Below are positions 1,932 to 1,947 of a stretch of 9,434 bases of DNA, one piece after another. The stretch is from Escherichia coli (lineage in GTDB: Bacteria > Pseudomonadota > Gammaproteobacteria > Enterobacterales > Enterobacteriaceae), in NCBI RefSeq assembly GCF_003334255.1, contig NZ_QOWU01000088.1; one strand, written 5' to 3'. The notes beneath the pieces were generated by a model. It saw only the letters and a list, made by a program, of their open reading frames with translations. It was not told the DNA's origin and did no database searches. Numbering within the stretch: position 1 is the first letter of the stretch; the number at the start of each line of letters is the position of its first letter. The position numbers were made by a program, and so were the translations under genes.

Positions 1932-1947
1932 TGTGACGCACGTCACC
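1932..1947. promoter_or_regulatory. CRP-like palindrome TGTGA-N6-TCACC in the dsrA / yedP intergenic region
   Basis: TGTGAcgcacgTCACc matches 9 of 10 positions of the CRP half-site consensus TGTGA-N6-TCACA with correct spacing. It lies about 105 bp upstream of the yedP start and about 88 bp upstream of the dsrA transcription start on the other strand. Function not verified. Confidence 0.35.

Follow-up and report, generated by a model that had tools for sequence, protein, structure and literature searches.

The 16 nucleotides at positions 1932-1947 of the Escherichia coli DNA analyzed here almost certainly bind CRP, and the explanation that we favor, with fair confidence, is that they form a genuine cAMP-CRP operator in the control region shared by the divergent genes dsrA and yedP. 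The window, by which we mean the whole stretch of DNA that was analyzed (9,434 nucleotides of contig NZ_QOWU01000088.1, assembly GCF_003334255.1), carries the genes rcsA, dsrB, yodD, dsrA, yedP, dgcQ, yodC, yedI, yedA, vsr, dcm and yedJ, in this order. As a binding site the element is already known, and it is an ordinary high-affinity intergenic CRP operator and no new kind of element. What is added by the present analysis is its restriction to Escherichia, the pattern of selective constraint upon it, the frequencies of its alleles, the place of yedP in the RpoS response, and the geometry of the region. The case for a CRP site stands on published binding and on conservation, and not on the match to the CRP pattern.

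Sequence and position of the CRP-type site

The sequence at 1932-1947 is TGTGAcgcacgTCACC, which reads TGTGACGCACGTCACC and matches TGTGA-N6-TCACA at 9 of the 10 half-site bases, with a spacer of the correct 6 bp. This agrees exactly with the earlier note, made from the letters alone, in which both half-sites and the 6-bp spacing had been recognized. The core operator (1932-1947, no strand assigned) is centered on 1939.5, and its identification draws on the sequence, a weight matrix, published ChIP-seq and Footprint-seq, and the invariance of its half-sites. It is embedded in a full 22-bp CRP site, AAATGTGACGCACGTCACCCCT (1929-1950, again with no strand assigned), with a left flank rich in A, like that of the consensus, and a right flank rich in C. 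On one side lies the gene for the small RNA (sRNA) DsrA, located at 1766-1852 on the minus strand (Rfam RF00014, 102.5 bits, and the K-12 annotation), with its annotated 5' end at 1852. On the other side, yedP occupies 2051-2866 on the plus strand and encodes, according to its 271-codon open reading frame, annotation and homologues, a HAD-IIB phosphatase related to mannosyl-3-phosphoglycerate phosphatase. Counted from its center, the site is 87.5 bp away from the annotated dsrA 5' end and 111.5 bp from the yedP ATG (2051), upstream of both, so that the distances given previously, approximately 88 and 110 bp, were correct. The K-12 copy of the motif is found at NC_000913.3 2025393-2025408 (center 2025400.5), and over positions 1700-2200 the window is 100% identical to E. 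coli strain FORC_069.

The strength of the match itself was evaluated in two ways. The site is the only match to the CRP pattern with at most one mismatch in the window; since 0.29 such matches are expected, and 51 of 200 shuffled sequences contained at least one, the pattern match by itself is not significant and is merely suggestive. Moreover, a weight matrix was built on 106 CRP sites from ChIP-seq (Haycocks 2015), with the present site left out, and it gave the site a score of 14.1 bits, which would rank 39th among the 106 ChIP sites (median of 12.9 bits); the runner-up position in the window scored 9.2 bits. Shuffled sequence yielded 0.08 weight-matrix hits per window (9.4 kb), or, by extrapolation, about 40 per genome.

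Published CRP binding at the dsrA-yedP site

Occupancy by CRP at this same motif has been published both in vivo, by ChIP-seq in ETEC H10407, and in vitro, by Footprint-seq on K-12 DNA, which bears out the CRP-type site proposed in the earlier note. The comparison with ChIP maps suggested there as a check thus returns CRP occupancy, in the ETEC H10407 ChIP-seq data. Table 1 of Haycocks 2015, obtained from mid-log cells in M9 fructose, contains 111 high-confidence CRP targets, and among them is GGTGACGCGCGTCACA, assigned to yedP (ETEC_2057) with a peak at 2201816. We found that GGTGACGCGCGTCACA is the reverse complement of the CG allele of the motif, described below, and that it is located at NC_017633.1 2201985-2202000, with its center 176.5 bp away from the printed peak center. 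Similar offsets were observed for ptsG (+227.5), mtlA (+183.5/+227.5), yibI (+159.5/+202.5), caiT (+204.5) and yedR (+196.5), of which ptsG and mtlA are established CRP targets. Because the same shift occurs at these five other listed targets, the gap at the ETEC site is a systematic offset of the table and no objection to the assignment of the site. In general, the peak centers in that table run 160-228 bp below the motif centers of NC_017633.1 in six of the six targets checked, and any mapping of Haycocks 2015 Table 1 onto the RefSeq genome must allow for this shift.

The in vitro evidence comes from Wang, Stringer and Wade 2026, in whose Table 1 a region listed as dsrA/yedP was bound by CRP in Footprint-seq on K-12 genomic DNA with a Kd of approximately 6.3 nM. 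Of the 1,217 regions bound, 77 had a Kd below 10 nM, this one among them. The 21-mer printed there, aaTGTGAcgcacgTCACCcct, is the same as the site in the window, and the center of the region (2025391) is 9.5 bp away from the motif center. The authors label the site as novel, as no site described previously or predicted in their RegulonDB-derived comparison set lies within 500 bp of it, and they argue that high-affinity intergenic CRP sites are mostly regulatory. The remark in the earlier note that no annotated CRP site was known here is therefore out of date, the site being already in the literature, even though it counts as missing from RegulonDB in Wang et al. Other uncharacterized high-affinity intergenic CRP sites, such as those at ygcW/yqcE, ddlA/iraP and rppH/mutH, appear in the same published tables, and the present site, found in both Haycocks 2015 and Wang et al. 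2026, shows no difference in kind from them.

A third source is the preprint by Lin et al. 2025 (bioRxiv 10.64898/2025.12.22.696124), which describes CRP sites predicted at -500 to +100 of sRNA genes, EMSA, and a comparison between the wild-type and a crp mutant. There, DsrA is placed in a group of "CRP-repressed, low cAMP" sRNAs, with dsrA being detectable only by Northern blot at 30 °C. When our weight matrix was applied to the same region of dsrA (-500 to +100), the sole site above 7 bits was the one described here. With regard to the K-12 ChIP-exo study (Latif 2018), the accessible text of the supplement gives neither gene names nor coordinates for the dsrA/yedP locus, which counts weakly against binding in K-12 cells.

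Conservation within Escherichia and across Enterobacteriaceae

A YedP-anchored scan was carried out with one genome per GTDB species, which provided 80 loci across Enterobacteriaceae, or 81 once K-12 was added. The genes dsrA and yedP are divergent neighbors in 81 of the 81 loci. Between them, a CRP-type site scoring 13 bits or more was found in six loci only, all from the genus Escherichia: E. coli K-12 (14.1 bits), Escherichia sp. MOD1-EC7003 (17.6 bits, with perfect half-sites, TGTGATGCGTGTCACA), E. albertii (13.1 bits), Escherichia sp. E1V33 and E. whittamii (15.5 bits each), and E. coli SCPM-O-B-8794 (14.7 bits). No comparable site was detected in the dsrA-yedP intergenic region of Salmonella, Citrobacter, Leclercia, Lelliottia, Enterobacter, Kosakonia, Buttiauxella and others. 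The site is, therefore, a gain in cis-regulation that is confined to the genus Escherichia. The expectation that a functional palindrome should be conserved among relatives holds in one respect and fails in another: the half-sites are kept in all the Escherichia lineages that were sampled, and in E. coli no less than 98.6% of the genomes that hold the region keep them, while outside Escherichia the site is absent.

The variation among the six Escherichia lineages is unevenly distributed over the site. TGTGA and TCAC are invariant, whereas the spacer is found as CGCACG, TGCGTG, CTTTCG, TCCGCG or TGCGCG. In terms of alignment columns, 9 of the 10 half-site positions are invariant as compared to 1 of the 6 spacer positions (Fisher P = 0.008), and the background fraction of invariant columns is 0.56 (binomial P = 0.025). 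Moreover, when 16-column windows were slid along the alignment, the 5-6-5 pattern of invariance appeared in 2 of 145 positions, both of them being the site itself at adjacent offsets. Selective constraint thus falls on the half-sites contacted by CRP, while the six central bases drift. The spacing between the site and the dsrA 5' end is fixed at 87.5 bp in all six lineages, and the yedP ATG lies 107.5 to 111.5 bp away, depending on the lineage.

Within E. coli, the 16-mer of 12 lineages chosen across the identity range differs solely at the central dinucleotide, which is CA, CG or TG. The three alleles were counted with allele-specific 40-mers, given that megablast with a 28-base word cannot score across a central mismatch. 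The CA allele was found in 1,471 genomes, CG in 2,190 and TG in 1,604. Among the 5,426 E. coli genomes searched, 5,341 thus hold the region, and 5,265 of these (98.6%) have the 16-mer intact. With CG at its center, the 16-mer (GTGACGCGCGTCAC) becomes perfectly palindromic over 14 bp, and this inner palindrome is lost in other Escherichia species (spacers CTTTCG, TCCGCG and TGCGTG). As the inner symmetry of the CG allele is not kept across species, constraint acts on the CRP contacts.

Two further observations were made in the course of these comparisons. In E. coli GmF046 (NZ_CM183658.1; locus L091, left of locus position ~200), the boundary between promoter and start of dsrA is interrupted by an IS4 element, which parts the dsrA body from its promoter and leaves the CRP site and yedP intact. 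In addition, two Salmonella loci that have no CRP site carry an inverted repeat centered approximately 98 bp upstream of dsrA, with a lone TGTGA in front: GACAAC-N6-GTTGTC in Salmonella enterica subsp. arizonae (locus L007, 2379-2396) and GACAAC-N6-GCTGTC in S. enterica subsp. diarizonae (locus L067, 2378-2395). Located at roughly the corresponding place, this repeat may be the operator of a different regulator.

RpoS dependence and candidate promoters of yedP

We then considered the two genes that the site might serve. In the stationary-phase data of Cho 2014 (Table S7), yedP (b1955) shows log2 values of 11.49, 11.74 and 11.29 in the wild-type, and of 6.49, 6.65 and 6.19 in the delta-rpoS strain, which corresponds to an approximately 30-fold dependence on RpoS. 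In agreement, yedP is found in the RpoS iModulon in the motif table of Sastry 2019. This dependence explains the silence of yedP in transcription start site (TSS) maps made from exponential-phase cells: for yedP, Table S1 of Kim 2012 holds just a 2-read start, located 464 nt upstream, inside yodD. In the examined papers that mention yedP we found no treatment of its promoter, and neither there nor in the accessible supplements did we find crp- or cAMP-dependent yedP expression.

The RpoS dependence extends to the neighborhood. Among b1953-b1956 in Cho 2014 Table S7, stationary-phase log2 values in the wild-type and in delta-rpoS were 14.2 and 6.5 for yodD, 11.5 and 6.4 for yedP, and 9.0 and 6.9 for dgcQ. 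The latter gene (yedQ) encodes the diguanylate cyclase that regulates cellulose synthesis. In the window, dgcQ (2863-4557, minus strand) carries a Q312-to-stop change at 3622-3624 (CAG in K-12, TAG here) that cuts off the GGDEF-containing C-terminal part of the protein, and in the annotation of FORC_069 it is a pseudogene with an "internal stop".

Reading the plus strand between the CRP site and yedP, three candidate -10 hexamers can be proposed. With a putative GATAAT at 1998-2003, CRP would be centered at -70.5 (window allele) or -69.5 (K-12-type allele); this hexamer is partly, and not well, conserved even within Escherichia. A candidate GAGAAT at 2016-2021 would place CRP at -88.5 (window allele) or -87.5 (K-12-type). 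Lastly, a putative promoter TTGATA-17-AATCAT at 1996-2024, with AATCAT at 2019-2024 as its -10 element, scored 9/12 in a consensus scan and would place CRP at -91.5 (window) or -90.5 (K-12-type). Every geometry between yedP and CRP is thus a conjecture drawn from the letters of the intergenic region. In the A-run at 1982-1988 (GAACAAAA), downstream of the GGGAnnnnTCCC repeat, the window and FORC_069 have one extra base (C at ~1985) that is found neither in K-12 nor in ten other sampled E. coli lineages; in other Escherichia species a further 1-2 bp are missing. This run, whose length varies, lies between the CRP site and each of the promoter candidates of yedP. Class II arrangements, in which CRP would be centered at -41.5, were rejected on both strands: on the plus strand, the required -10 position (1969-1974) is CGGGAT, which is not -10-like, and on the minus strand it is AATCAT (1910-1905), a weak -10, with no TSS reported near 1898.

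Two other inverted repeats were observed in the intergenic region. The first, GGGA-N4-TCCC, in which GATC is usually contained, is found at 1969-1982 (CGGGATCGCTCCCG; core GGGATCGCTCCC, 1970-1981), 36 bp downstream of the CRP center. It is the best-conserved intergenic element after the dsrA core promoter, with 12 of 14 columns (1968-1981) invariant in Escherichia, and it is recognizable, with at most one mismatch in the eight arm bases, in 42 of the 81 loci across genera; its context is terminator-like on neither strand. The second, at 2015-2028 (TGAGAATCATCCTG), immediately precedes the Shine-Dalgarno sequence of yedP and has conserved counterparts across Enterobacteriaceae, for example as TAAGAATATTCCTA in locus L022 and as TAAGAAAATTCCTA in locus L016. 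It is close to TAAGAATATTCCTA, which we take to be the consensus of the RcsB/RcsAB box, with 10 of 14 positions matching in E. coli. In approximately 43 loci this repeat is 43-45 bp from the GGGAnnnnTCCC repeat, and its distance to the ATG varies. Being fixed relative to GGGAnnnnTCCC and variable relative to the ATG, it may represent a promoter-anchored operator, possibly for control of yedP by Rcs, with rcsA located three genes away.

The dsrA promoter and its position relative to CRP

The sRNA DsrA is one of the major activators of RpoS translation and antagonizes H-NS; its partly understood transcriptional inputs are temperature, LeuO and ppGpp/DksA. The candidate dsrA core promoter, with hexamers read from the sequence, spans 1857-1885 on the minus strand and is composed of a -35 element TTGTCA (1885-1880), a 17-bp spacer and a -10 element TAAGGT (1862-1857). 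In the block at 1853-1890, 32 of 38 columns are invariant in Escherichia, and the block is also conserved across genera. The TSS in Table S1 of Kim 2012 lies 3 nt further in than the annotated 5' end, at window position 1849, and is supported by 694 reads. Accordingly, the CRP site is centered at -87.5 relative to the annotated +1, at -89.5 when counted from the -10 hexamer, and at -90.5 relative to the Kim 2012 TSS.

The position of the site at dsrA falls between two of the class I optima, -82.5 and -92.5, and is off helical phase; class I CRP centers are known at approximately -61.5, -71.5, -82.5 and -92.5. The site is also too far upstream of dsrA for steric repression. With regard to other inputs, the PNAS 2025 pheS paper ties dsrA to ppGpp/DksA and not to CRP. 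In Table S7 of Cho 2014, two of the three delta-rpoS replicates show a raised dsrA signal (approximately 6.2 vs. 9.9, log2).

Several sRNA genes are regulated by CRP, namely spf, encoding Spot 42, which is repressed, and cyaR and mcaS, which are activated. Similarly to these, dsrA has a CRP site upstream of an Hfq-dependent sRNA, and in Lin et al. 2025 it is grouped with them. It differs in that the site is far upstream and off-phase, so that neither simple occlusion nor canonical activation fits, and in being limited to Escherichia although DsrA is conserved across Enterobacteriaceae.

Possible regulatory output of the site

With good confidence, we expect the site to regulate at least one of dsrA and yedP. 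The single likeliest output, which we put forward tentatively, would be class-I-type co-activation of the RpoS-dependent yedP promoter by a CRP dimer, an assignment that we infer from the upstream position of the site. As in class I promoters of the lac P1 type, there is a single upstream site for a CRP dimer, which has a TGTGA-N6-TCAC core and is bound with nanomolar affinity. Here it lies 70-92 bp upstream of plausible yedP starts, which are themselves putative, and between phase optima for dsrA (-87.5 to -90.5). With co-activation of yedP, a stationary-phase gene would also respond to carbon starvation (cAMP), in the manner of csiD. The csiD promoter, according to work from the Hengge laboratory, is reportedly RpoS-dependent and activated by cAMP-CRP from -68.5, so that carbon-starvation and stationary-phase inputs are joined. 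The gene yedP is likewise strongly RpoS-dependent, and one of the three candidate -10 hexamers of its putative promoter would place CRP at -69.5/-70.5; by contrast, csiD has no counterpart of the two conserved elements (GGGAnnnnTCCC and the RcsB-box-like repeat) found between the CRP site and yedP.

The same CRP site may, in addition, modestly damp dsrA transcription, in line with what the Lin et al. preprint reports. A direct negative effect of CRP on dsrA is conceivable, and we regard it with some doubt. Combining both effects, the site could be seen as an Escherichia-specific bidirectional switch that rewires the general stress response, with cAMP-CRP repressing dsrA from about -88, off-phase, and co-activating the RpoS-dependent yedP; falling cAMP would then lead to more DsrA, acting on RpoS and H-NS translation, and the switch would be absent from Salmonella and other enterics. 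We consider this combined scheme unlikely.

Many CRP-bound sites are known that have no measurable regulatory effect. The main alternative to a functional operator is, accordingly, that CRP occupies a good match while transcription of yedP and dsrA is not measurably changed, which we hold to be rather improbable. It is in keeping with the literature on yedP expression described above, with evidence on the dsrA side that comes from one preprint, and with the off-phase position relative to dsrA. Moreover, both genes persist and function in Salmonella, Citrobacter and Enterobacter with no such site, and chance alone would provide sites at the rate estimated from shuffled sequence (0.08 per 9.4 kb, some 40 per genome). 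However, a silent match would not be expected to show invariant half-sites around a drifting spacer in six Escherichia lineages, and the retention of an intact 16-mer in at least 98.6% of the E. coli genomes holding the region is likewise unexpected for an unselected match. The location between two divergent promoters also argues against silence, considering the view of Wang et al. 2026 on intergenic high-affinity sites.

It could also be that dsrA is the sole real target, CRP at about -88 lowering its transcription by, e.g., DNA bending or mis-positioned polymerase alpha subunits on the A/T-rich upstream region; we judge this to be quite improbable. If true, low cAMP would result in higher DsrA levels and in more RpoS translation. 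Three observations are consistent with such an arrangement: DsrA is classed as CRP-repressed, with an EMSA-validated site, in Lin et al., and the present site is the sole candidate; the spacing to dsrA is constant in six of six Escherichia lineages, as opposed to the variable distance to the yedP ATG; and dsrA is strongly transcribed in growing cells, where yedP is nearly silent. Nevertheless, repression from -88 by CRP with no partner protein has no established mechanism, and the fixed spacing may merely reflect few indels in the well-conserved region upstream of dsrA. Furthermore, deletion of crp is pleiotropic, and the effect in the crp mutant could be indirect, through growth rate or ppGpp, as dsrA is activated by ppGpp/DksA.

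That the palindrome is not CRP's at all, and rather serves as operator for a different regulator that binds palindromes, or forms an RNA hairpin or terminator, is close to refuted: the CG allele has more symmetry than CRP needs, and on the minus strand a hairpin resembling a terminator (1946-1933) turned up in a consensus scan, but only the CRP half-sites are kept in other Escherichia species, where the inner palindrome is lost, and direct binding by CRP is published. A regulator reading the inner palindrome was rejected, the center not being conserved between species, and so was an RNA hairpin or terminator, with folding z-scores of 0.16 (minus strand) and -0.92 (plus strand) and with the hairpin absent from the minimum-energy structure of the minus strand.

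Returning to the favored explanation, a genuine cAMP-CRP operator between dsrA and yedP, its meaning would differ for the two genes. For yedP, a joint CRP and RpoS input, if true, would hint at a role in carbon starvation for this phosphatase encoded beside dgcQ. For dsrA, a direct cAMP-CRP input, if true, would link carbon status to RpoS translation in Escherichia only, and this link between cAMP-CRP and DsrA would then be a clean example of recent regulatory rewiring.
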